Origin: Nanobdellota archaeon
GTDB lineage: Archaea > Aenigmatarchaeota > Aenigmatarchaeia > QMZP01
Assembly (NCBI GenBank): GCA_018816245.1
Contig: JAHIVW010000003.1
Coordinates: forward strand, 321,453 to 385,452
Reading direction: 5' to 3'
DNA length: 64,000 nucleotides
Numbering within the stretch: position 1 is the stretch's first letter; every line of letters starts with the position of its first letter. Position numbers and translations under genes: made by a program. The notes under the pieces are model-generated. The model was not told the origin of the DNA. It did not search any database and saw only the letters and a list, made by a program, of their open reading frames with translations. Positions 3,408 to 14,911 of the stretch are shown here, one piece after another.

Positions 3408-3959
3408 ATGCACATCAGTTTGCGTTCCAATTTCAGGACACAGAAGCTGGCCATATTCATCGTCAGTGCGATCATTACAGTTGTGATCATGACGACTCCC
3501 TGGTTCCAGGAGAGCTTACTCTCGCTCGGTGATCTTGGCCACATTGGTGCCTTCATCATCGGCTTCTTCTTCTCCTATGGCATGACCACCATTCCTGCCA
3601 TCGCTGCTTTTACTATCCTCGCCAAGACCATGAATCCATTTCTCCTCGCGCTTGTTGGTGCCTTTGGCGCAGTCCTCTCAGATTACCTCATTTTTCACAT
3701 TGTCAGGGACGATATTGTGACGATGGCCAAGATGAAGGCCTGGCGCATCCGAATCCATCCGAAATGGCACCTGATCCTGCACCTCCGCAAGCTGGCCCCC
3801 CTCCTTGGCGGGTTGATTCTTGCCTCACCGCTTCCGGACGAGGTTGCCATGGCAGTCTTCGGGGTAGGCCACCTCAAAAACAAGATGTGGCTTGCAATCA
3901 CCTTTACTGCGAAATTCTTCGCCATCCTCGTCATTGCGCTTGCTGCTCCCTTCTTCTAA
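3408..3959 (+). CDS. Integral membrane protein, function unknown
   Basis: 183-aa ORF with about 5 hydrophobic helices. No diagnostic motif recognised. Confidence 0.5.
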   Translation: MHISLRSNFRTQKLAIFIVSAIITVVIMTTPWFQESLLSLGDLGHIGAFIIGFFFSYGMTTIPAIAAFTILAKTMNPFLLALVGAFGAVLSDYLIFHIVRDDIVTMAKMKAWRIRIHPKWHLILHLRKLAPLLGGLILASPLPDEVAMAVFGVGHLKNKMWLAITFTAKFFAILVIALAAPFF

Positions 3960-3993
3960 AGCTTTTTGTAGGTTTGCACCCAAACAAGAAGGT

Positions 3994-4251
3994 ATGAGTG
4001 CGTTTATCCAGATCCTCGGGTTCATTATCTTCATATTGGGGATTGTTGGTGTTGTGATCGGCAGTGTGGCAGGCTTTGCTGTTGAGGGTGCGATTCAGGA
4101 ACTCTCAGCAAACCCTGATTTCCAGGAGTTCTCTTCTGTTGCAGAAGGTGTTGCAGGGTTTGCAGGTTGGATCTCCTTGCTCATCCAAGTCATTGGAGCA
4201 GGAAACCTCCTCGCTGGGATTGCGATCATTGCAATCGGGCGGCGTGTCTAA
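3994..4251 (+). CDS. Small two-helix membrane protein
   Basis: Internal start MSAFIQILGFIIFILGIVGVVIG. There is a second hydrophobic helix near the C-terminus. Confidence 0.4.
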   Translation: MSAFIQILGFIIFILGIVGVVIGSVAGFAVEGAIQELSANPDFQEFSSVAEGVAGFAGWISLLIQVIGAGNLLAGIAIIAIGRRV

Positions 4252-4526
4252 AGGAGTTCACTAATCAGGCCTGCCAGCTTCACGTCTGCACTTGTCACCC
4301 CACCAACAGAACGAGTCCGGAGCCGAAGCATGACCTTGTTGAATTGAATCGTCATCTCTGGATGGTGATTATATTCAACAGCGAGCTCTGACACCTCTTC
4401 AACAAAGACCATGGCTTCCTTGAAATCGTAGAAGGACACGGTCCGGGCAAGCGCGTTCCGTTCTGCGCGCCATCCCGGGACCAACAGAATCTTTTTCTTC
4501 AGTTCTGCTGGGGTGTATTTCTTCAT
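4248..4526 (-). CDS. Pterin-4a-carbinolamine dehydratase (PCD/DCoH)
   Basis: 92 aa with ...FKEAMVFVEEVSELAVEYNHHPEMTIQFNKVMLRL..., the conserved HHP core of PCD. There is a 4-nt overlap with the upstream gene. Confidence 0.85.
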   Translation of the reverse strand: MKKYTPAELKKKILLVPGWRAERNALARTVSFYDFKEAMVFVEEVSELAVEYNHHPEMTIQFNKVMLRLRTRSVGGVTSADVKLAGLISELL

Positions 4527-5818
4527 GCTTTCTCAGGGAACTGTGATTTCCGGAGGATTTTCCCGGCCTCCCGGATGAACTTGCGGACATATTCCCGCTG
4601 TGCCAGAATATCGTTCTTGGGAATCGACAGGATCTTCCCCCGTTTAATTAACTTCCGCATCTTGTCGAGGTTGGTCAGAACCTCGAGATAGTGTTCTGGA
4701 ACCGTGTGAGTTGTTATCAGGTGCTTCTTGAAGGTAAGGTTGAATGACTCTGATGCTGCCGGTCGTTTCCCCATGGATCGCATCAAGGTCATCGCTGTTT
4801 CGGTCATAATTGCATATGATTTCTGGACCATGCTCTCCCGTTTCAAGATCTCGATCTTCACAATCAACGATCTCATTTTGGAGACGAACTTGTCTGCAAC
4901 ACTGATCCATTTGTCGAGTTGTGCCCCTGTCATGAACTTAATGCGCTTGTGTTCAACTCCCTTTCGAATCTCAATCACGTCTTCGAGTTGTTTGACATCA
5001 TGCTCGGTCATGAGCTTCATTGGAACGAGGATCTTGCGGAGTTCTTTGGGTGCGTCAACAGGCCGTGGTGGGGTCTTGCCCAGAAACATCAGGACAGCTT
5101 GCGCACTTTCGAGCATCGCATAGTAGAGATCCTCCACAACCATGTACATTTTTGCGTTTTTGACGCGTCGGATTCGTTGTGGACCGCGATCGATGAACTT
5201 CTCAACCGCTTCCTTGCTTGGCCGGATCTCGCCCATTTGTAAAAGGCGCTTGATGGGAAGGAAAATATCCTTGTCATAGACCGGCACGCCTTCCCGGATG
5301 AAATTAAAGACGATAGGGTGCCCTTCGCGAACGAGCCGCCAGAACTCGGTCAGGGTATAGGGTTGTTGAATCGAAAGATGCTTGGAACACGCTTTTGCAA
5401 TATCCTCGATCTCCCATTCGATCTTGTCCCGAAGGGCTGGGGTGAGGCGCTGCCGGGTATCGTCAATAATCATGAAGACGTCAATGTCAGACTCGCCTCG
5501 CTCTGTTCCCCGGGCAGTCGACCCGAAGAGGACAATCGACCGGATCACGGATCCGTGTTTCTTCAGGACCTCGGAGGTGAATTTCTTGAGAATTTCAATG
5601 CGTTTTTTCTTGTCAATTTCGTCTGGTTCCTTCTTCTTCTCTTTTGCATCGTCACGAGGCTTCCGTTCCAAGGCCGCATTAATTGCCTTTTCTTCCGAAG
5701 AGCCCGCTCGTTCAGCTGCCTCCTCTAGCGGAACTCCCAGATCTTCAACCTTCTCAGGCTGGTCAGGTCGGTCAACCCGCTCCTTGGGTTCATTTATGAA
5801 CTTCTTGCGAGTAACCAT
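4523..5818 (-). CDS. Fused Pol-beta-type nucleotidyltransferase plus HEPN-like helical domains
   Basis: The NTase signature is LFGSTARGTERGESDIDVFMIID. Helical C-terminal domains follow, with an Rx4H motif (RKGVEH). Start is set at the ATG at 5818, preceded by GGAGG; the longer ORF to 5968 overlaps the upstream gene. Confidence 0.7.
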   Translation of the reverse strand: MVTRKKFINEPKERVDRPDQPEKVEDLGVPLEEAAERAGSSEEKAINAALERKPRDDAKEKKKEPDEIDKKKRIEILKKFTSEVLKKHGSVIRSIVLFGSTARGTERGESDIDVFMIIDDTRQRLTPALRDKIEWEIEDIAKACSKHLSIQQPYTLTEFWRLVREGHPIVFNFIREGVPVYDKDIFLPIKRLLQMGEIRPSKEAVEKFIDRGPQRIRRVKNAKMYMVVEDLYYAMLESAQAVLMFLGKTPPRPVDAPKELRKILVPMKLMTEHDVKQLEDVIEIRKGVEHKRIKFMTGAQLDKWISVADKFVSKMRSLIVKIEILKRESMVQKSYAIMTETAMTLMRSMGKRPAASESFNLTFKKHLITTHTVPEHYLEVLTNLDKMRKLIKRGKILSIPKNDILAQREYVRKFIREAGKILRKSQFPEKA

Positions 5819-5850
5819 ATGGTACTCCTTCCGTAAGGAGACATAAAAGG

Positions 5851-7761
5851 CTACCGGAACTCGCCGCGTTTCCACTGTTCTGGCTTCTTTCCTTTCTGCA
5901 ACACTTCTCGGGAGAGCATGGTCCAGTCCTCCTCGGGGATCTGCAGGAGATCCTTCAGTGGCTCCCATGCCTTATCGCGAATGATTGCCCGCTGGCGCTC
6001 AATGTCACCTGCTGTCAATCCTTTCATCCCAAAGAATTCCATGGGGAGATTTTCTGGTTTCACGAGTTTCTCGGCATACTTTGCAACTTCCCGGAGGACA
6101 TCAACGGATTTCTGAAAAGGATCTTGTGCCCCGCCGCGTTCGAACATAAGGAAGGCGGTTTGTTTCTTTCCCAATCCTGTCTTGCAAAGATTGTAAATCA
6201 GTTCGTACAGTTCGATGTCGCCAATCTCAAGCGGGTTGTGTGGGTGAAGAGGATTTGGGTGGTTCGCATGCACGGAGATTACGATTTCACCGAAATCTGG
6301 TCGCGTCAGCACGTCCTTTCGGCTTTCGACGAGCACATCAACGCCTTGTGTCGCAATATGTTCATTATCCACTATCATCATCACATGGTTCGTGTTGAGA
6401 GTCTTTTGCAGCGTCTTGATAAGCGCATACATTTGTTTGGGACGCCAGATGAAGTACAAACCAGCGTACTGCGCTTCACGCGCATCGGGGTTTTCGAGAC
6501 CAATGATTAAATTCCGCGCGTTTTGTGTCAAGGTTTCGATTTCCTTTTTCTTTTCCGTGGCAGAGAGGTTCGTACTGTTCACTGCCTCGGGGATCTCCTT
6601 CTTAATAAGGACATGTTCAATCCAGTGAAAGGCGTCCCGCAAGTGCCCTTCAATAAATTTCGCACAAATGGCTGCATAAAAGAATTCCTTGAACTCTCGG
6701 TCGTTCGTGTCTTCTGCCTTCTGCCATGCATTCTCAAGCCACCGTTTATCACTATAATCGAGTTTGTATCGCTGCATCAATTCTGGGTATTCCTTAGTCA
6801 TGGCAACCCATTGCGGATCCTTGGTGTAGAAGAGGTAGTGTCCCATAATGTGGTACCCGTCCAACATCCCAACCGGTGCCCGGCGGAGCTCTTCGGATTC
6901 CCAGGGATCTCCCTCCATGAACTTCTCCCGAAGGAAGTTGTCAATCTCCTCCTTCTGAATTTCTGCATTCTTTTCAACCGTGGCCTTGCGAAGTCGCTCA
7001 AAAATATCCTCAACAATTCGATCGAGCTTTGCGTGCCGTGTTTTCCGGGGGATCCCGCGGATGATTGCCGCTTCGATGAAGTCTTCAACAAATTCTTCAT
7101 AGTTCAGATTCCTAGTTCCGCGAGGACTGGAAATTTGAATACCTTCGATGAGTTCTTTGTACGGCGCAAGTTCGCTGCGAAGGCGGTGGTCGGTCTCTTC
7201 CCGCTTCCACCGATCTTCCCGCAACTGATACCGACTTGAGATCACTGTTTGTTCCTCACGGTTGACAATATCTCCATAGTAGATATCGCCTTTCTTCCGA
7301 ATGAACCATTCCCGGAGATCTTCGTTCTCTTTGAGGATGGTTTTGATAAACCGGCCCATGTGATCACAAAAACTCATGGTAAGTTTTCGACCGGTATAGG
7401 TGACGAGTTCAAGCCAGATGTTCAGACATGCGTGAAAATCAATATACTTTGCGCCAAGGTAGACAGCAGACCGCAATGACTTGTATACTCGATCTTGTGC
7501 ATCACGCCATTCGCCTCGCTCGGGGATTTCAAACGGAACAGTCAAATCACCATGGAATGCGAGGGTAACACCCTGTTTTTTGGCAATATGTCGGATCTCG
7601 TAACCTTGGGTGTAGGGGACCTCGTGGGCAACGTCTGCTGCAAGTTCCATAGAAGAGGTTCCTCGGGTGAGGGTGTAGCCGAGCTTCCGCATGATCGTGG
7701 AGAGTTCTTCACTCCGAGCAGCGTAATAGATGCCGCTCGTCACACCGACTTTGAGTGCCAT
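5851..7761 (-). CDS. Xylose-isomerase-like (AP endonuclease 2 family) TIM-barrel protein split by a ~300-aa helical insertion
   Basis: The N-terminus (MALKVGVTSGIYY...AFHGDL...LGAKYIDFHAC) and C-terminus (MMIVDNEHIATQG...VHANHPNPLHPHNPLEIGDIELYELIY...FERGG) resemble the metal-binding strands of sugar-phosphate isomerase/Endo IV TIM barrels. The middle is charged and helical. Confidence 0.55.
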   Translation of the reverse strand: MALKVGVTSGIYYAARSEELSTIMRKLGYTLTRGTSSMELAADVAHEVPYTQGYEIRHIAKKQGVTLAFHGDLTVPFEIPERGEWRDAQDRVYKSLRSAVYLGAKYIDFHACLNIWLELVTYTGRKLTMSFCDHMGRFIKTILKENEDLREWFIRKKGDIYYGDIVNREEQTVISSRYQLREDRWKREETDHRLRSELAPYKELIEGIQISSPRGTRNLNYEEFVEDFIEAAIIRGIPRKTRHAKLDRIVEDIFERLRKATVEKNAEIQKEEIDNFLREKFMEGDPWESEELRRAPVGMLDGYHIMGHYLFYTKDPQWVAMTKEYPELMQRYKLDYSDKRWLENAWQKAEDTNDREFKEFFYAAICAKFIEGHLRDAFHWIEHVLIKKEIPEAVNSTNLSATEKKKEIETLTQNARNLIIGLENPDAREAQYAGLYFIWRPKQMYALIKTLQKTLNTNHVMMIVDNEHIATQGVDVLVESRKDVLTRPDFGEIVISVHANHPNPLHPHNPLEIGDIELYELIYNLCKTGLGKKQTAFLMFERGGAQDPFQKSVDVLREVAKYAEKLVKPENLPMEFFGMKGLTAGDIERQRAIIRDKAWEPLKDLLQIPEEDWTMLSREVLQKGKKPEQWKRGEFR

Positions 7762-7762
7762 A

Positions 7763-9367
7763 CTACTTGATCCTCATCCATCCTTCAAGCAGCTTGACCA
7801 CATCACTGTAAATCGGTCCCATCTCACGAAAATACATCTTCGTCATCCGCTCGTAATAGATGGACTCATAGGGACCTCGTCGCACAAATCGGTAAAAGAT
7901 GAATTCAAAACCAGTTTTGATCGCACGACCGATCCTTCTGTATGGTTTCAGTTTCGCGCTTATCCGTTTCCGACGTCCCGGAACCTCTGGCTCAAACTCT
8001 TTTTCAATATTTTCGAGGACGTTCTCCTCGCTCCTGCGGGAACCAATGATCTCTTCAATATATTTGTCAAAGGCTTTTTCGCGTGCCTTGAGCTCGATGA
8101 GGAAAACCAAAAGAATGTTCTGGGAGATGATATACGTATCAAAAGGAATGAACATGAGGTTATCTGTCTCAAACCCTTCTGGCGGCGGAGCCTTGACGAG
8201 GCTGAGAAGAATGTGCATGTCAAAGAAGACGTAGTACAGGGCTGATGGATCCATCATTGGGAAGTACTGAGAATAATTGGGATCTGTCGCGTTTTCGAGA
8301 ATTGTTTTCACGTCCTCGTTCGTTATCTCCACGTTGTAATGTTCCTCAATTCTTTTTTGCCACTCCTTCACAACGTCGTCATAAGGATGAATGACCCACT
8401 TCGCGCTGCCTTTTGATACTTCAGCATAGGCCTCTGCTTTCCGTCGTTCCGGGACAGTAACCGCCCGCCAGCACCAGAGCCGTACGGCACTGAGTGCTTG
8501 TGATTGTCCCCAGCCCGGGGTGATGTTCGGTTCCGTTAACCACTCGCCAGCATTGTCTTCCTGTTTTTCACGGATCATTTTAAAGCGGGCGATGTACGGC
8601 TTCAGCCACGTTCGGTAGGCATCGATTGATTGGCGCCGGGAACGAAGTAGGGTATCAATGCGAGAGTAGCGTTCCTTAAGGTTGGGGAGAAAGAGCCGCA
8701 CCCACTCTCGGTAGAGCTCGTTCTTTGTTTTCAGGACCGTTGCCTCGGCTTGCGTGACATCGAGTTCCTTCCGGATGGTGTCGATATTGTCCCACCCACT
8801 CTTCATCCGGATGAAATCAGTGATAATGGTCGGCCAGCGCCGGACCATGGTAATCATGGAGTAGTTTTCCCCGGTAAATGCGTCAACCCGGTCGACGAAG
8901 ACGTTCCGAAGGACGTGTTCATCGCCGGTGTGTTTTGCGGTCTTGAAGTAATCGAGCATCTCCCGGTAGCGACGGGCATCATGTGCCAGGAGCTCGTAAT
9001 CAGCGACTGCCTGCGCTGCTGACTGGAGACCCTGTTTGATTGCTCCTTCGAGCTTCTGTTTCTGCGTAACGGTGATATTATAGTAATCTGCATAGGTGGG
9101 GGTGACCTCAAGCCACTCATCCACCTTTTTGACCGTGAATTTCATTTTCGGAAGTTTGTTGATGAGGGCGTGGTAAATCCCGTACGCGCTCCCGCGGAGA
9201 CCAGTATAGTCAAGGGTCGTTGTCATTTCTTTGGGTGCACCGATCACATAGTTTCCCACATGCCTGTAGCTCGCCTGCTGCTTCGAAATAAGTTCATCGA
9301 CAACCAATTTTTCTGTCGGTGGTTTCATGTCTGGCTTCTGAGCGAGCTGCTGAGGGTTGCGATCCAT
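7763..9367 (-). CDS. Large hypothetical protein (534 aa)
   Basis: Uninterrupted ORF separated by 1 nt from the downstream TIM-barrel gene. No motif recognised. Confidence 0.6.
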   Translation of the reverse strand: MDRNPQQLAQKPDMKPPTEKLVVDELISKQQASYRHVGNYVIGAPKEMTTTLDYTGLRGSAYGIYHALINKLPKMKFTVKKVDEWLEVTPTYADYYNITVTQKQKLEGAIKQGLQSAAQAVADYELLAHDARRYREMLDYFKTAKHTGDEHVLRNVFVDRVDAFTGENYSMITMVRRWPTIITDFIRMKSGWDNIDTIRKELDVTQAEATVLKTKNELYREWVRLFLPNLKERYSRIDTLLRSRRQSIDAYRTWLKPYIARFKMIREKQEDNAGEWLTEPNITPGWGQSQALSAVRLWCWRAVTVPERRKAEAYAEVSKGSAKWVIHPYDDVVKEWQKRIEEHYNVEITNEDVKTILENATDPNYSQYFPMMDPSALYYVFFDMHILLSLVKAPPPEGFETDNLMFIPFDTYIISQNILLVFLIELKAREKAFDKYIEEIIGSRRSEENVLENIEKEFEPEVPGRRKRISAKLKPYRRIGRAIKTGFEFIFYRFVRRGPYESIYYERMTKMYFREMGPIYSDVVKLLEGWMRIK

Positions 9368-9410
9368 AGGTATCCCATCTCTTAGTTAGCGGCTATTCCA
9401 TAAAAGGGTT

Positions 9411-9596
9411 CTAGAGGAAGAAAAACGCCCCCGCAAGCATGAGGAAGATAATACCAAGGATAATACCCGTTGTGGAGAATGTTGAGCCCTGATGTTCAGC
9501 TGTCCCGGGGAAGAAGAAAACAAGAAAAACCCCAAGAAGCAGGAGGATAACCCCAACAACACCCCCAGTTAACCCAAAGAGGACCATATACTTCAT
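9411..9596 (-). CDS. Small two-helix membrane protein
   Basis: 61 aa, almost entirely two hydrophobic helices. It is the first gene of the minus-strand string. Confidence 0.4.
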   Translation of the reverse strand: MKYMVLFGLTGGVVGVILLLLGVFLVFFFPGTAEHQGSTFSTTGIILGIIFLMLAGAFFFL

Positions 9597-9640
9597 ATTT
9601 ATGCGGATCTCGTTAAAATATACCCAGGAACGGTGAGAAC

Positions 9641-10162
9641 ATGGTCTTTGCGCGTGCCAAGCTGTTAATGGAGGATCAATGCTTTGATGAAGATCCGGGA
9701 ACCGTGGAAATCAAGTTGATTGGCCCTGACCTGCAGACTATGTATCAGAAGTGCTACGACTTACTGAAATCCGTTTTCAATGTTCCTGACGCTGATATTC
9801 AGGAAACTAATTATAGTTGGGGAAAGAGTGAGAAGGGGGACAAGTTCAAAGTTCGGTGGTGGCTCCACAAGGATCTTGATTTGTTTTCCTATTTCTACAT
9901 CAGATTCGAACTCGCGGGAGAAGGGAACGAGAAACAGGGGAACCTGATGGTCCGGATCCGTGGGCTTCTTCGAACAGAGTACCCACAAGACACACTCTGG
10001 CAACGATCGCTCTTCTACGAGATGCTCCGGGTGTTCTGGCACCGGATTTTCTATCACCGGCGACGAGAAATTTATGCAGAGGAATGTCGTCATGGCATTG
10101 TTCTCTACCAGAAGAAAGTCAAGGCGCTCTTTACAAAACTCACCGAAAAGAAGGAGGTGTAA
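9641..10162 (+). CDS. Hypothetical protein, paralog A of a tandem pair
   Basis: Shares LL.(E/V)D(Q/E)C, GPD, RWW and a C-terminal R....Y.E.CR..I......K..F pattern with the next ORF. Confidence 0.6.
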   Translation: MVFARAKLLMEDQCFDEDPGTVEIKLIGPDLQTMYQKCYDLLKSVFNVPDADIQETNYSWGKSEKGDKFKVRWWLHKDLDLFSYFYIRFELAGEGNEKQGNLMVRIRGLLRTEYPQDTLWQRSLFYEMLRVFWHRIFYHRRREIYAEECRHGIVLYQKKVKALFTKLTEKKEV

Positions 10163-10164
10163 TC

Positions 10165-10677
10165 ATGGGTCAGCTCCTCCTTGTTGACGAATGTCTCACA
10201 CCAAACAGGCAGATTGCAATGACGTATTCTGGTCCAGATCCGTGGGGGATTGCAAAAAAGATTGCTGATAACCTCAAACCATATTTCCATGTCAGCTCGT
10301 CCAAGAACGGAAGACAGCGGATCAACTGGGACGATGCCATGGATCCCATTACCTTCTATGCACGCTGGTGGGTCATGCGACCGAAATCTCGGTTCACAGC
10401 ATTCTGGATCGAAATGTGGGTTATTGGAAACAAAAGCAAGGTCAACAACACCGGTGAATTTACGCTCTACATGGAAGGGAAAACCAAAACAGAGGTCTCG
10501 GGATGGGGGATTTTGTTGCGACCCTTTTGGTTGATGTATTCCTACTTCTACTACGATCGTGTCCGTCGGCAGTACATCGAAAGCTGCAGAAACCAGATTC
10601 TGAACTTCCGAAATGAAATTAAAGAACACTTTGGTTTGGCAAAGACAGAAGTGCCGGTCCATGGTGTCTACGCATAA
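10165..10677 (+). CDS. Hypothetical protein, paralog B of a tandem pair
   Basis: The ATG at 10165 is preceded by AAGGAGGTG. Paralogous to 9641-10162 (see finding). Confidence 0.6.
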   Translation: MGQLLLVDECLTPNRQIAMTYSGPDPWGIAKKIADNLKPYFHVSSSKNGRQRINWDDAMDPITFYARWWVMRPKSRFTAFWIEMWVIGNKSKVNNTGEFTLYMEGKTKTEVSGWGILLRPFWLMYSYFYYDRVRRQYIESCRNQILNFRNEIKEHFGLAKTEVPVHGVYA

Positions 10678-10679
10678 CT

Positions 10680-10991
10680 ATGGGCTATCCACCACTCACC
10701 CAGGGGAGCACGATCCTCCGTGGTTTCCTTGGCGGCGGGCTTATTGTTGCTGGACTTATGAACCCTTGGGGACTCGCTCTCCAAGCTGTTCTCTTCGTCC
10801 TCGGTGTTTTCATCTTGTTTGAGAGTTGCATGCGGCAAAACGGCGGCGTCTATATTCTCACTGCAGTTTTAACGGCGATCGTCAGCGGCATCATCATGGC
10901 GTTCCTTAGCTTGCTCGGCTGGAGTTGGATCTTGGCCGCGCTCTTTGTTATCGGTGCCGTGCTCCTTCTGGTGAAACGGTTCACCCACTAG
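10680..10991 (+). CDS. Small membrane protein (3 TM)
   Basis: 103 aa and hydrophobic. It starts 2 nt after the preceding stop. Confidence 0.5.
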   Translation: MGYPPLTQGSTILRGFLGGGLIVAGLMNPWGLALQAVLFVLGVFILFESCMRQNGGVYILTAVLTAIVSGIIMAFLSLLGWSWILAALFVIGAVLLLVKRFTH

Positions 10992-11024: not shown

Positions 11025-11098
11025 GGGACCGTGGTGCAGTTTGGTTAACATTCGAGGCTGGGGGCCTCGCGACCTGGGTTCAAATCCCAGCGGTCCCA
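11025..11098 (+). tRNA. tRNA-Pro (anticodon GGG)
   Basis: Hand-folded cloverleaf. The acceptor stem is GGGACCG/CGGTCCC. The anticodon stem is CGAGG/CCTCG with loop CTGGGGG. The T arm is CTGGG-TTCAAAT-CCCAG and the discriminator is A. No CCA is encoded. Confidence 0.9.
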
Positions 11099-11688: not shown

Positions 11689-13101
11689 GTGTCGAAACCG
11701 TCGCCATCGTTGCTTTCACAGGTAACCCAAAGCGGGGCACAGATTGTTGATTTTCACTTTGTGGATATCCTCGGGCAACTGCACCACAAAAGTATCCCGG
11801 CATCGAATCTCGAAGCGGTTTTGCAGTATGGGGAAGGGATTGACGGATCGAGCATCGCTGGATTCCAAGCAATCCACGAATCTGATATGCTCCTCTTCCC
11901 GGACAAGCATGCTGCTCATTTTCTTGACCCCTTTACCGCGATACCGACATATGTTGTGTTGTGCAGTGTGAAAACACCAGATGGTGACGACTATGAAAAA
12001 GATTCACGAACCATTGCACAACGCGCTGAACGGTATCTTGTGAAGACAGGAATCGCAGAGAAGAGTTTCTGGGGACCAGAGGCAGAGTTCTTCATTTTGA
12101 ATCATCTCTCGTTTGATCAGGGAGCTCATTTTGCTCACTATCTTGTTGACTCAGAAGAAGGGATCTGGAACTCTGGGAAGAACGGTCAACCAAACCTTGG
12201 CCATCGCCCGGGATTCAAGAAAGGGTATTTCCCGTCGCCTCCTATCGATAGCCTTCATGATATTCGGTCAGATATGATGCTGACGTTGAATCGTGTTGGA
12301 GTTCAAACAGAAGCGCATCACCACGAAGTTGCGAGCGGAGGGCAGTCAGAAATTTCAATACAATACGACAGCCTCCTCCGGATGGCGGATAAAACCGTTC
12401 TCTACAAATATATCGTTAAGAATGTTGCCCGTCGGCATGGACGGACAGCAACATTCATGCCCAAGATTCTGTTCGGTGATAATGGGAGCGGCATGCATAC
12501 CCACATCAGCTTGTGGCAGGGAGGAACGCCTCTTTTTTATGAACAAGGTCGGTACGCAGACCTCTCCGAAGCGGCAGAATACTTCATTGGTGGTATCCTG
12601 CGCCATACACCCGCGTTGCTTGCGTTCGTTGCCCCAACGACAAACTCTTATAAACGCCTCGTGCCCGGGTTTGAGGCACCGATCAATCTCGTCTATTCAC
12701 AACGAAACCGGTCTGCGGCAATCAGAATTCCAATGTGTTCCACTCCTGCAGCGAAGCGGATCGAATTCCGTGTTCCAGACCCAAGCTGCAACCCCTATCT
12801 TGCCTTTTCCGCGATCTTATTGGCAGGCATCGACGGAATACAAAATAAGATAAAACCACCGGCACCTATTGACAAGAATACCTACGAGCTTCCGGCCACA
12901 GACCGCCTGCACCTCGCAACACTCCCGAGGAGCCTCGAGCGGGCACTCGAGTTGGTAGATCAGGACAGCACGTTTCTTCGAAAGGGTGGTGTCTTTTCCA
13001 AGGATTTCATTCAGAGTTACCTTGCATTAAAGTGGCTGGAGGTTCATGAGGTTGGGTGCCGGCCACATCCCCAAGAGTTCGCTCTCTATTCTCATATATA
13101 G
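11689..13101 (+). CDS. glnA: Glutamine synthetase type I
   Basis: GSGMHTHISLW, NSYKRLVPGFEAP and RIPMCSTPAAKRIEFRVPD motifs. A GTG start at 11689 after GAAGGGGA is preferred over the upstream ATG, which adds a hydrophobic non-homologous leader. Confidence 0.93.
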   Translation: MSKPSPSLLSQVTQSGAQIVDFHFVDILGQLHHKSIPASNLEAVLQYGEGIDGSSIAGFQAIHESDMLLFPDKHAAHFLDPFTAIPTYVVLCSVKTPDGDDYEKDSRTIAQRAERYLVKTGIAEKSFWGPEAEFFILNHLSFDQGAHFAHYLVDSEEGIWNSGKNGQPNLGHRPGFKKGYFPSPPIDSLHDIRSDMMLTLNRVGVQTEAHHHEVASGGQSEISIQYDSLLRMADKTVLYKYIVKNVARRHGRTATFMPKILFGDNGSGMHTHISLWQGGTPLFYEQGRYADLSEAAEYFIGGILRHTPALLAFVAPTTNSYKRLVPGFEAPINLVYSQRNRSAAIRIPMCSTPAAKRIEFRVPDPSCNPYLAFSAILLAGIDGIQNKIKPPAPIDKNTYELPATDRLHLATLPRSLERALELVDQDSTFLRKGGVFSKDFIQSYLALKWLEVHEVGCRPHPQEFALYSHI

Positions 13102-13123
13102 GTTGACGGATCAATCATACTCG

Positions 13124-14911
13124 ATGCGACACGAACGAATTGCAATTATTGATAGGGAGATGTGTAAACCGAAGGTGTGCGATTGGTACCTCTGTCAGCG
13201 TGTCTGTCCTGTTGAACGTTCAGGAACCGAATGCATCACGGTTTCAGAAACCGATAAAAAACCGTTCATTAATGAGGAGACCTGCATCAGTTGCATGATT
13301 TGTGTCAAAAAATGTCCTACCAAAGCTATTAATATCGTCAATCTTCCCCATGAACTTGATGAACCTCCTGTCCATCGCTATGGAAAGAACGAGTTTGCCC
13401 TCTATCGGTTGCCAATTCCTGAAAAGAATGCCGTTGTTGGGCTTATTGGTCCAAATGGTGTGGGCAAGTCAACGGTAATGAATATCCTTGCTGGTGCACT
13501 CCAACCAAACAGCGGCGTCCTTGAACGAAAAACAGCAGAGTGGAAAGAATTGATTACCCAGTTCAAAGGAAGTGAACTCCAAGCATACTTGGAACGTGTT
13601 GCTGCTAAACAAATTCGTTCTGCGTATAAACCGCAAGCCGTTGATCAAATTCCTCTTATCTGGAAAGGGACTGTTCAAGAGATGCTGGCAACGCTTTCAG
13701 AGAAAAAACGAGTTGTCGATGCTGTCAAGAAGCTTGGGATTGGTCATTTACTGGGAAAAGAAGTAAAGGGACTTTCTGGTGGAGAGCTGCAGCTCCTCGC
13801 CATCGCCGCAACCATCGCCCGGGATGCTGATTTCTACTTTTTTGATGAACCATCCAGCTATCTCGATGTATATGAACGGTTGCGTGCAGCCGGAGCTATC
13901 CGCGAATTAGCAAAACATTCCATTGTGCTTGTTGTTGAGCATGATCTTGCTGTTGCCGATTATCTTGCGGACACGGTTCATGTATTATACGGAGAACCGG
14001 CTGTCTATGGTATTGTGTCCCATCCGCAGGCTGTTCGGAATGGGATCAACTCCTATCTTGATGGCTATTTACCAAGCGAGAATGTTAGGATCCGCCCTGA
14101 AGCTATCCGATTTGACTTGCGTGCAAAAGAAACACAAAAGAGCAAAGTGTTCATGACTTTCCCGGAGTTGGCCAAGACCTTTCCTGGATTTCAACTGCGA
14201 ACCTCCGCAGGAAGTGTGTATAAAGGTGAAGTCATTGGTATCATTGGACCGAACGGTATTGGAAAAACAACCTTCATCAAACTCCTTGCCGGTGAACTGG
14301 CTTCTGATACCGGAACACCTCTTCCAACGATGCGGCTCTCATATAAACCGCAGCGATTGATTCTCACCAACGAAGAAGAAGCGTTCACGGTTCATGAATT
14401 TTTGAGTGAGACGACTGACAGTCTCTCCACCACTGAAGCAAAGCGACTGCTTCGGCTTCTTGGTATCGAGAAACGGTTTGAGAAAATCATGAGCAACTTG
14501 TCCGGCGGAGAGTTACAAGCCGTGTTTATTGCCCGGGCGCTCCTGGCTCCCCATGACATGCTGCTTCTCGATGAGCCTTCGGCATTTCTTGATGTTGAAC
14601 AGCGGCTCGTTGTTGCAAAAATCCTCCGATCCTATACCGAGGACAGACAGATCCCTGCCTTCCTTGTGGATCACGATCTCCAATTTATTGATGTGATTTC
14701 CGACCGGCTTATGGTTTTTGAAGGAGAACGAGGGAAGATGGGCACAGGGAACGCTCCAACTGACCTGACACAAGGAATGAATACCTTCCTCAAGCAACTG
14801 GGGGTAACCTTCAGACGCGATCCGAGCACCGGGCGGCCCCGGGCAAACAAACCAGGATCACAGAAGGACCAGGAACAGAAACAACACGAAGCCTACTTTT
14901 ACGCTTCATGA
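13124..14911 (+). CDS. abcE1: ABCE1 / RNase L inhibitor ribosome-recycling ATPase
   Basis: The N-terminus has two 4Fe-4S motifs (CKPKVCDWYLCQRVCP and CISCMICVKKCP). Two ABC cassettes follow (GPNGVGKST and GPNGIGKTT, each with LSGGELQ). Confidence 0.95.
   Translation: MRHERIAIIDREMCKPKVCDWYLCQRVCPVERSGTECITVSETDKKPFINEETCISCMICVKKCPTKAINIVNLPHELDEPPVHRYGKNEFALYRLPIPEKNAVVGLIGPNGVGKSTVMNILAGALQPNSGVLERKTAEWKELITQFKGSELQAYLERVAAKQIRSAYKPQAVDQIPLIWKGTVQEMLATLSEKKRVVDAVKKLGIGHLLGKEVKGLSGGELQLLAIAATIARDADFYFFDEPSSYLDVYERLRAAGAIRELAKHSIVLVVEHDLAVADYLADTVHVLYGEPAVYGIVSHPQAVRNGINSYLDGYLPSENVRIRPEAIRFDLRAKETQKSKVFMTFPELAKTFPGFQLRTSAGSVYKGEVIGIIGPNGIGKTTFIKLLAGELASDTGTPLPTMRLSYKPQRLILTNEEEAFTVHEFLSETTDSLSTTEAKRLLRLLGIEKRFEKIMSNLSGGELQAVFIARALLAPHDMLLLDEPSAFLDVEQRLVVAKILRSYTEDRQIPAFLVDHDLQFIDVISDRLMVFEGERGKMGTGNAPTDLTQGMNTFLKQLGVTFRRDPSTGRPRANKPGSQKDQEQKQHEAYFYAS

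Follow-up and report, generated by a model that had tools for sequence, protein, structure and literature searches.

A vertically inherited gene module of the Aenigmatarchaeota centred on a split TIM-barrel protein and its possible role as a membrane-associated phosphodiesterase complex

The Aenigmatarchaeota are uncultured, genome-reduced DPANN archaea with genomes of 0.3-1.9 Mb. In the present study, a stretch of 64,000 nucleotides (nt) from a 0.89-Mb, 6-contig genome of this phylum (assembly GCA_018816245.1, contig JAHIVW010000003.1, positions 321,453 to 385,452), hereafter the window, was analysed with regard to a compact divergent block of genes. On one strand, this block carries the genes for a small membrane protein (m61), a 534-residue protein (p534), a 636-residue protein (p636) and a nucleotidyltransferase fused to HEPN-like domains (NTase), and, on the other, the paralogs parA and parB followed by a second small membrane protein gene (m103). 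It was found that these genes very probably constitute a real conserved functional module, which is distributed across the whole phylum, vertically inherited, housekeeping in character and non-mobile. The ancestral core of the module consists of p534, p636 and NTase in this order, and the parA-parB pair, often continued by m103, and m61 are attached to it in most lineages. Regarding its function, the reading that we favour, with a probability of roughly 45%, is that the products of this housekeeping module build a membrane-associated complex with a metallo-phosphodiesterase, p636, at its centre.

The original prediction, which was made from the sequence of the window, had proposed that the co-oriented and tightly packed genes of this block belong to a single functional system, and the comparison of gene neighbourhoods, on which that prediction had staked itself, agreed with it for most of the block. 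Hidden Markov models (HMMs) of the families were mapped on 108 related loci, comprising 20 from the window's own order, 18 from other orders of the same class and 70 from named GTDB species, and the homologs of p534, p636, NTase, parA, parB and m61 were found co-localised throughout the phylum, separated by short gaps and with their linkage maintained. In the dominant arrangement, m103, parB and parA are transcribed away from m61, p534, p636 and NTase, and this order is shared by the 20 loci of the own order, by 17 of the 18 from the rest of the class and by most of the 70 loci of named species. The median gaps amount to 16 nt between p534 and p636 (35 loci), 9 nt between parA and parB (36 loci), 27.5 nt between m61 and p534, and 84 nt between p636 and NTase. 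With over 100 loci of other genomes sharing this gene order, the arrangement is far beyond what chance would produce. Moreover, p534 is present in 289 of the 301 phylum genomes, including 97 of 98 high-quality ones, and in 39 of 41 relatives, and its E-values weaken with taxonomic distance, which is the pattern expected under vertical descent. A pattern scan of GTDB species for the module returned Aenigmatarchaeota-type genomes only, and where homologs of p534, p636 and parA have a named source, it is nearly always an Aenigmatarchaeota metagenome-assembled genome (MAG).

Not every gene of the block takes part in this conservation. The minus-strand string had been thought to include the gene for pterin-4a-carbinolamine dehydratase (PCD), and the plus-strand string to end at a tRNA-Pro gene. 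However, tblastn detected no PCD match in the 108 related loci, none of which carries a neighbouring tRNA-Pro either, any tRNA gene being found in only eight of them. Additionally, there is no tRNA or non-coding RNA partner shared among these loci, tRNA-Pro being the only match given by Rfam. Therefore, both PCD and tRNA-Pro are regarded as local passengers, and the tRNA marks no conserved boundary of the string. The position of m103 is intermediate, since it is a frequent member downstream of parB but not a universal one: it adjoins parB in about 27 of the 70 named loci according to the HMM, and in 10 of 39 according to BLAST clustering. In several orders, the m61 HMM located this gene upstream of p534 in the majority of loci.

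The linkage among the remaining genes persists even where the locus was rearranged. In two loci belonging to one family (L017 and L020), the parA-parB pair is inverted, resulting in the continuous order parA, parB, p534, p636 and NTase, and, in another rearranged genome, p534 is followed by parB with parA in convergent orientation. In the deep-branching families f8, f15 and f27, p534, which is shorter there, p636 and NTase are directly adjacent to each other, and beside ABCE1 in two of the three cases, and a single parA/B homolog is located elsewhere in the genome, for instance at a distance of 230 kb in G137, an assembly of one contig. The adjacency of the trio in these families therefore indicates that p534-p636-NTase is the ancestral operon, and the co-occurrence of parA/parB with the trio when unlinked argues for a functional tie independent of physical linkage. 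In most loci, deep lineages included, NTase comes after p636. Only 12 genomes have no p534 match; in three of them parA/B are found at contig ends, which corresponds to an assembly break, and p534, p636 and parA/B are jointly absent from G043 (94% complete), G195, G238, G263 and G295.

The surroundings of the module are conserved as well. In the window, it is flanked by housekeeping genes, namely FEN1, glutamine synthetase and ABCE1 (also called RLI; 13046-14911, plus strand), the last of which is also close to the module, no more than a few kb away, in 21 of 39 loci, and an Obg-like GTPase and a kinase of approximately 185 amino acids (aa) also recur nearby, forming with ABCE1 a conserved translation-related neighbourhood. 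The recurrence of these three genes therefore places the module in a fixed housekeeping neighbourhood. It could be argued that functionally unrelated genes simply share such a neighbourhood, since ABCE1, the GTPase and the kinase belong to the conserved stretch that holds the region, and since the spacing of NTase is looser than that of the other genes, its gap, with a median of 84 nt, reaching several kb where unrelated inserts are present. This explanation is very unlikely, since the linkage outlasts inversions and rearrangements, p534/p636 and parA/parB are tightly coupled, and the families co-occur when unlinked and are absent jointly. A gene set kept by nearly all members of the phylum, in the same order and among translation genes, is very likely essential to Aenigmatarchaeota biology.

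The possibility of a further conserved gene located between these two, p636 and NTase, was also considered and ruled out, because the inserts found at this position are unrelated, consisting of PQQ-type beta-propeller arrays, receiver domains or a radical-SAM protein. In one genome (G020, locus L026, 7555-14212), the insert comprises five tandem paralogs of about 435 aa with PQQ-type beta-propeller repeats recognised by eye, and, in another (G026, locus L029, 11659-14294), two tandem paralogs of the same size and kind. With respect to copy number, the complete Aenigmatarchaeota chromosome CP070801.1 (loci L115, at 872903-887736, and L092) carries a full-length p534 and, elsewhere, a second and partial copy, which covers residues 21-287 with 61% identity to the query.

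Among the products of the module, p636 offers the clearest indication of an activity. The split TIM barrel that had been proposed from its sequence was confirmed by an AlphaFold2 model, with a predicted local distance difference test (pLDDT) of 86.7 and a predicted template modelling score (pTM) of 0.83, and by Foldseek. In this model, a (beta/alpha)8 barrel is formed by strands b1-b4 (residues 3-110) and b5-b8 (residues 419-541), between which a helical insertion of about 300 aa is accommodated, composed of a variable coiled-coil arm (~165-283) and a conserved helical domain (~287-415) with an invariant G372-H373. The C-terminal tail of about 60 aa (575-636) is conserved despite its low model confidence, a combination that, as far as the model allows, would be typical of a partner-binding segment. 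The Foldseek neighbours of the barrel are xylose isomerase, UlaE, psicose and tagatose epimerases and MJ1311, with probabilities of about 1.0 and TM scores (normalised by target) of up to 0.63. Although p636 has no Pfam or NCBIfam match, and neither the whole protein nor its spliced barrel gave anything significant in profile searches against PDB sequences, many of its orthologs carry a precomputed PF01261 annotation. Additionally, when the insertion was excised, the barrel was aligned by hhalign with 15 canonical PF01261 proteins of the phylum with a probability of 96.4% and an E-value of 1.2e-9 over 215 columns, and the His/His/Glu/Asp-x-x-His/His/Glu positions coincided in this alignment.

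These positions are subject to extreme conservation: of 72 distinct orthologs, all have H70, H110, E423, D465, H498 and E541, 71 have H468, and 70 have H508. In Escherichia coli endonuclease IV (Nfo), the ligands of the trinuclear metal site are H69, H109, E145, D179, H182, H216, D229, H231 and E261, and the conserved positions of p636, which line up with the corresponding residues of the canonical paralogs, presumably match eight of these nine. It can be stated that p636 belongs to the superfamily of xylose-isomerase/endonuclease-IV barrels and that it appears to have preserved an intact, invariant metal site. As the multi-histidine pattern resembles the trinuclear site of endonuclease IV and not the site of a four-ligand sugar isomerase, phosphodiesterase chemistry is therefore favoured, and p636 is probably an active metallo-phosphodiesterase.

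With endonuclease IV and the MJ1311-type proteins of PF01261, p636 shares the barrel and presumably the His/His/Glu/Asp-x-x-His/His/His/Glu set at the C-terminal ends of the strands, and its profile homology is to canonical PF01261 proteins of the same phylum. However, it differs from them by the long insertion between b4 and b5, by the conserved tail and by its constant pairing with the orphan p534, and its 636 aa lie outside the compact single-domain format of about 280 aa typical of endonuclease IV and AP_endonuc_2 proteins. The barrel of p636 is a well-known one, but a version split in this way is without precedent. The idea that p636 could be the sole endonuclease-IV-like enzyme of the genome was discarded, given that a canonical PF01261 protein of 282 aa is encoded outside the window (C4:426567-427286), beside which p636 is an additional, diverged paralog. 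This canonical protein shows a weak match to nfo (TIGR00587, E 2e-10), and its best relative in the PDB is MJ1311 (3wqo).

The second enzyme of the core was confirmed in its general architecture. Downstream of a variable, K/E-rich N-terminus, NTase comprises a minimal domain of the pol-beta type (~62-190), recognised by PF01909 with an E-value of 1.9e-10 (41.4 bits, cut-off 21), and two HEPN-like helical domains (~196-322 and ~323-431), which correspond to an internal duplication of the C-terminal 240 residues (hhalign 98.6%, E 9e-16). The G99-S100 and D111-x-D113 residues of the former are conserved in at least 95% of 48 orthologs, as are R285, K286 and E289 in the first HEPN-like domain, in which H290, kept in at least 80% of 33 orthologs, completes an Rx4H motif (R285-KGVE-H290). 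The C-terminal region of the window's own NTase has no Pfam HEPN match, and a comparison with a rough HEPN alignment gave 34% probability (hhalign E 4e-4). PF05168 HEPN matches were obtained inside two orthologs, one of them above the cut-off (G005, 23.3 bits) and the other with an E-value of 5.5e-4 (G029). These matches, together with the Pfam nucleotidyltransferase match and the conserved R285-x4-H290, uphold the earlier NTase-HEPN reading, and the protein is a fusion with two tandem HEPN-like domains, whose four-helix content is predicted from sequence. A divergent CCA-adding enzyme (TIGR03671) was considered for this protein and rejected, since only the core was matched, with 24 bits, and the canonical enzyme, with 426 bits, is encoded at C4:549454-550659. 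In four loci of family f13 (L040, L041, L042 and L044), NTase is preceded by another NTase-like gene, which is shorter (about 285 aa), so that two nucleotidyltransferases are present in the module there.

The combination of a minimal pol-beta nucleotidyltransferase (GS...DxD) and helical domains is also found in kanamycin nucleotidyltransferase and in the MNT-HEPN systems (type VII toxin-antitoxin HepT/MntA), with the latter of which NTase shares HEPN-like four-helix domains carrying a conserved Rx4H. This raises the question of whether the block could be a defence or toxin-antitoxin island, formed by an MNT-HEPN pair with nuclease effectors. The HEPN-like Rx4H motif is in line with such an island, as are weak matches of the NTase domain to the MntA antitoxin, to the Hailong nucleotidyltransferase HalB and to PADLOC candidate systems. 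However, in contrast with the mobile, patchily distributed two-gene cassette of HepT/MntA, NTase is a syntenic core gene present in most of the loci sampled across the phylum, and nucleotidyltransferase and HEPN domains are not split into a two-gene pair but fused in a single chain of 431 aa, in which the HEPN-like domain is present twice in tandem and the N-terminus is extended by a charged segment. Furthermore, the locus, which is single-copy and near-universal in the phylum, keeps a fixed place among housekeeping genes, shows no composition anomaly, and contains no PADLOC or PHROG match for p636, p534, m61, parA, parB or m103, only the generic NTase domain being matched. A defensive role is thus extremely unlikely.

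The module further contains three orphan protein families. The structure search that had been suggested for its large proteins returned the barrel for p636 and no structural neighbour for p534, whose AlphaFold2 model (pLDDT 79, pTM 0.74) consists of a base with five long beta-strands plus helices, from which a coiled-coil hairpin of approximately 55 residues in length (helices 93-147 and 206-264) leads to a small helical tip (149-203), where the conservation of p534 is highest. No match to p534 was found in Pfam, NCBIfam, PADLOC, PHROG or PDB sequences, and Foldseek returned nothing for the model below an E-value of 0.1 in the PDB or of 0.001 in BFVD. Among viral models, the maturation proteins of single-stranded RNA phages were matched only weakly (E at least 2e-3, TM about 0.1), which is taken as noise, and the START/SRPBCC (Bet v 1-like) fold appeared with E-values of 0.5-1 and probabilities of 0.03-0.07 amid many coiled-coil matches.

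Regarding parA and parB, their paralogy was verified by BLASTP (25% identity over 164 aa, E 6e-15), and parA shows 52-74% identity to the homologs that were retrieved, which places it with the best-conserved families of the module. None of its 233 homologs has a Pfam domain, and those with a named source are almost all from Aenigmarchaeota/Aenigmatarchaeota. A search of 1.84 billion clustered proteins with the profile of the parA/parB family yielded no more than 198 representatives, of which the listed ones are mostly 150-190 aa long, with some shorter fragments, and those scanned are also devoid of Pfam domains. The pair has no link to Pfam, NCBIfam, PADLOC, PHROG or PDB sequences, no catalytic-looking motif was found in it, and a screen of isoelectric points (pI) detected no acidic, halophile-type (Nanohaloarchaeota) homologs among the 150 best representatives. 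Homology of parA/parB to a domain of p534 was ruled out (hhalign probability below 1%). A pair of cysteines is common to the two paralogs, C14/C149 in parA (9680-9682 and 10085-10087) and C10/C146 in parB (10192-10194 and 10600-10602), and was considered as a metal site, which was rejected because both cysteines are replaced in about two thirds of the family. They are kept in 44 of 124 members (first) and 43 of 124 (second) of the wider family, the former being otherwise replaced by V, L or I and the latter by G, A or S, and these similar fractions hint at what may be a buried contacting pair. The proteins p534, parA, parB and NTase are basic, with pI values of 8.7-9.7. The two gene strings each have a conserved, small hydrophobic protein at one end (m61 and m103), neither of which matches a PDB sequence; m61 has no match in Pfam, NCBIfam, PADLOC or PHROG, and m103 only a sub-threshold one in Pfam/NCBIfam and none in PADLOC or PHROG.

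These features of the orphan families could also be expected if the module were mainly structural, that is, a lineage-specific cytoskeletal, division or host-contact apparatus made of the p534 stalk and parA/parB, with the enzymes in accessory or regulatory roles. The strong conservation of parA in the absence of a catalytic-looking motif, the long coiled-coil hairpin of p534 with its conserved tip, the presence of the module throughout the phylum and only there, and the existence of an Aenigmarchaeota module devoid of functional prediction (Castelle et al. 2021, PMC8204110) are all compatible with this alternative. However, it is decidedly unlikely, considering that the tightest and oldest linkage of p534, as seen in the deep lineages, is to the two enzymes and not to parA/B, that the invariant metal ligands of p636 argue for central catalysis, and that no signal peptide or obvious polymerisation motif was seen in the sequences, which were inspected by eye with no predictor used.

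In the reading that we favour, the products of the module would form one membrane-associated complex, in which p636 would be the catalytic centre, acting as a phosphodiesterase with a multinuclear metal site from the endonuclease-IV branch of xylose-isomerase-like TIM barrels, with its large conserved insertion possibly serving as a lid or arm above the active site. The p534 protein, made in step with p636, might function as a stalk-shaped scaffold or as a partner presenting the substrate, and a parA/parB heterodimer and the small membrane proteins would act as structural or anchoring subunits. The hydrophobic m61 and m103, which point to the membrane, and the basic character of p534, parA, parB and NTase are among the points in favour of this reading. 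The NTase-HEPN protein is supposed to act on the same substrate as p636, so that the overall chemistry would involve the cleavage or trimming of a phosphodiester-linked substrate followed by nucleotidyl transfer. The most probable substrate would be nucleic-acid ends, in RNA or DNA end processing or in the salvage of imported nucleic acid, although a nucleic-acid substrate is in itself doubtful.

A different substrate is implied by an alternative in which a phosphodiester other than nucleic acid, such as host-derived lipid head groups, an envelope polymer or a cofactor, is remodelled or salvaged by the module at the membrane. In this case, p636 would be a phosphodiesterase comparable to CbiR, which acts on cobamides, NTase would use a nucleotide to re-activate the product, and p534 and parA/parB would carry a hydrophobic ligand. 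DPANN archaea depend on hosts to supply lipids and further building blocks, which fits such a salvage, as does the presence of two conserved small membrane proteins flanking the module. Additionally, sugar-phosphate enzymes belong to the PF01261 superfamily, as does the phosphodiesterase CbiR, which is weakly matched by the canonical PF01261 paralog of the genome, the Foldseek neighbours of p636 are sugar enzymes, and the matches of the p534 model to the lipid-binding START/Bet v 1 fold, though weak, are repeated. However, these START-like matches are not significant (probability below 0.1), the ligand set conserved in p636 is the His/Asp/Glu set of the endonuclease-IV type and not the four-ligand set of sugar isomerases, Rx4H HEPN domains are typically RNases, and no lipid or glycan enzyme occurs among the conserved neighbours. 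On balance, this alternative is rather unlikely.

The phosphodiesterase-centred complex that we prefer has, in turn, several points against it. Its activity, the assembly of the complex, its localisation and the underlying transcript are all steps that we infer, and membrane proteins fit a role in nucleic-acid processing poorly. With respect to p636, the ninth ligand of the endonuclease-IV site (D229) has no clear equivalent, the nearest residues being H506, found in 52 of 72 orthologs, and E512, found in 53 of 72; the protein of the window has no PF01261 match, either in Pfam or in a six-frame search of the genome; and its best structural neighbours are sugar isomerases and epimerases and not endonuclease IV. 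Moreover, the genome already has a canonical PF01261 protein and a CCA-adding enzyme, so that there is no obvious gap to be filled, and the co-absence of the families in fragmented MAGs is in part an artefact of assembly.

No description of this gene cluster was found in full-text literature searches. Castelle et al. (2021, Front Microbiol, PMC8204110) reported an Aenigmarchaeota-specific 'module 128' of families entirely without functional prediction and noted that many lineage-specific families of DPANN archaea are predicted to be membrane-bound or extracellular. Both that module and the families described here are restricted to Aenigmarchaeota, conserved in the lineage and unannotated, and the present families would be compatible with membership in it. 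However, the modules of that work are based on presence/absence profiles, and the passages searched in it (PMC8204110) give no gene cluster, structures or enzyme core.

If its function were known, the module would fill one of the largest conserved unknowns of the phylum, could show how these symbionts live on their hosts and would bring new folds and, possibly, a new enzyme activity. A more far-reaching version of the proposal, which is itself unlikely, would be a membrane-tethered machine in which the p534 stalk, with a new fold, and a parA/parB heterodimer of a new family position the split endonuclease-IV-type phosphodiesterase p636 and NTase-HEPN to process host-derived phosphodiester material, be it nucleic acids or other building blocks. 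If true, it would be central to the nutrition of these genome-reduced symbionts, phylum-defining and with no counterpart elsewhere. For experimental work, the module offers a well-defined set of six or seven small genes, with clear orthology and an active site that does not vary.

The organisation of the locus in the window is given in Table 1. The open reading frames (ORFs), junctions, spacer, ribosome-binding site and tRNA of the original prediction were all recovered at their positions by the ORF map and by inspection of the sequence, and the identity of PCD was corroborated by its Pfam match. On the minus strand, m61 and p534 are separated by 43 nt, a gap missing from the original prediction, p534 and p636 by 1 nt, and p636 and NTase by 32 nt, and NTase and PCD overlap by 4 nt; this close spacing suggests that the string may be transcribed as one operon, as had been proposed. 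On the plus strand, a ribosome-binding site (AAGGAGGTG, 10151-10159) is found 5 nt ahead of the ATG of parB. Base composition is uniform over the block, with no anomaly.

Table 1. Features of the divergent block and its immediate surroundings, in window positions.
Feature	Position	Strand	Description	Basis
PCD	4248-4526	-	Pterin-4a-carbinolamine dehydratase	ORF map; Pfam PF01329 Pterin_4a, E 8e-24; NCBIfam NF002017 above cut-off
NTase	4523-5818	-	431 aa; internal ATG taken as start, 32 nt past p636 stop	ORF map
p636	5851-7761	-	636 aa, split TIM barrel	ORF map
p534	7763-9367	-	534 aa, orphan	ORF map
m61	9411-9596	-	61 aa, two hydrophobic helices; first gene of right-hand string	Sequence
Divergent spacer	9597-9640		44 nt, A/T box TTAAAATATA at 9613-9622	Sequence
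parA	9641-10162	+	173 aa, orphan	ORF map
parB	10165-10677	+	170 aa, parA paralog; starts 2 nt past parA stop	ORF map
m103	10680-10991	+	103-aa membrane protein, about four hydrophobic helices	Sequence
tRNA-Pro(GGG)	11025-11098	+		ARAGORN and Rfam

The spacer between m61 and parA is a candidate shared archaeal promoter region, from which two leaderless or short-leader transcripts might depart. A scan for sigma-70 promoters and terminators was uninformative, the sigma-70 model being ill-suited to an archaeon, and A/T-rich divergent spacers of 23-100 nt are typical among the related loci. At the opposite end of the minus-strand string, a hydrophobic ORF of 119 aa with a TTG start (3892-4251, plus strand) runs convergent with it and ends 4 nt inside the region of the PCD stop codon.

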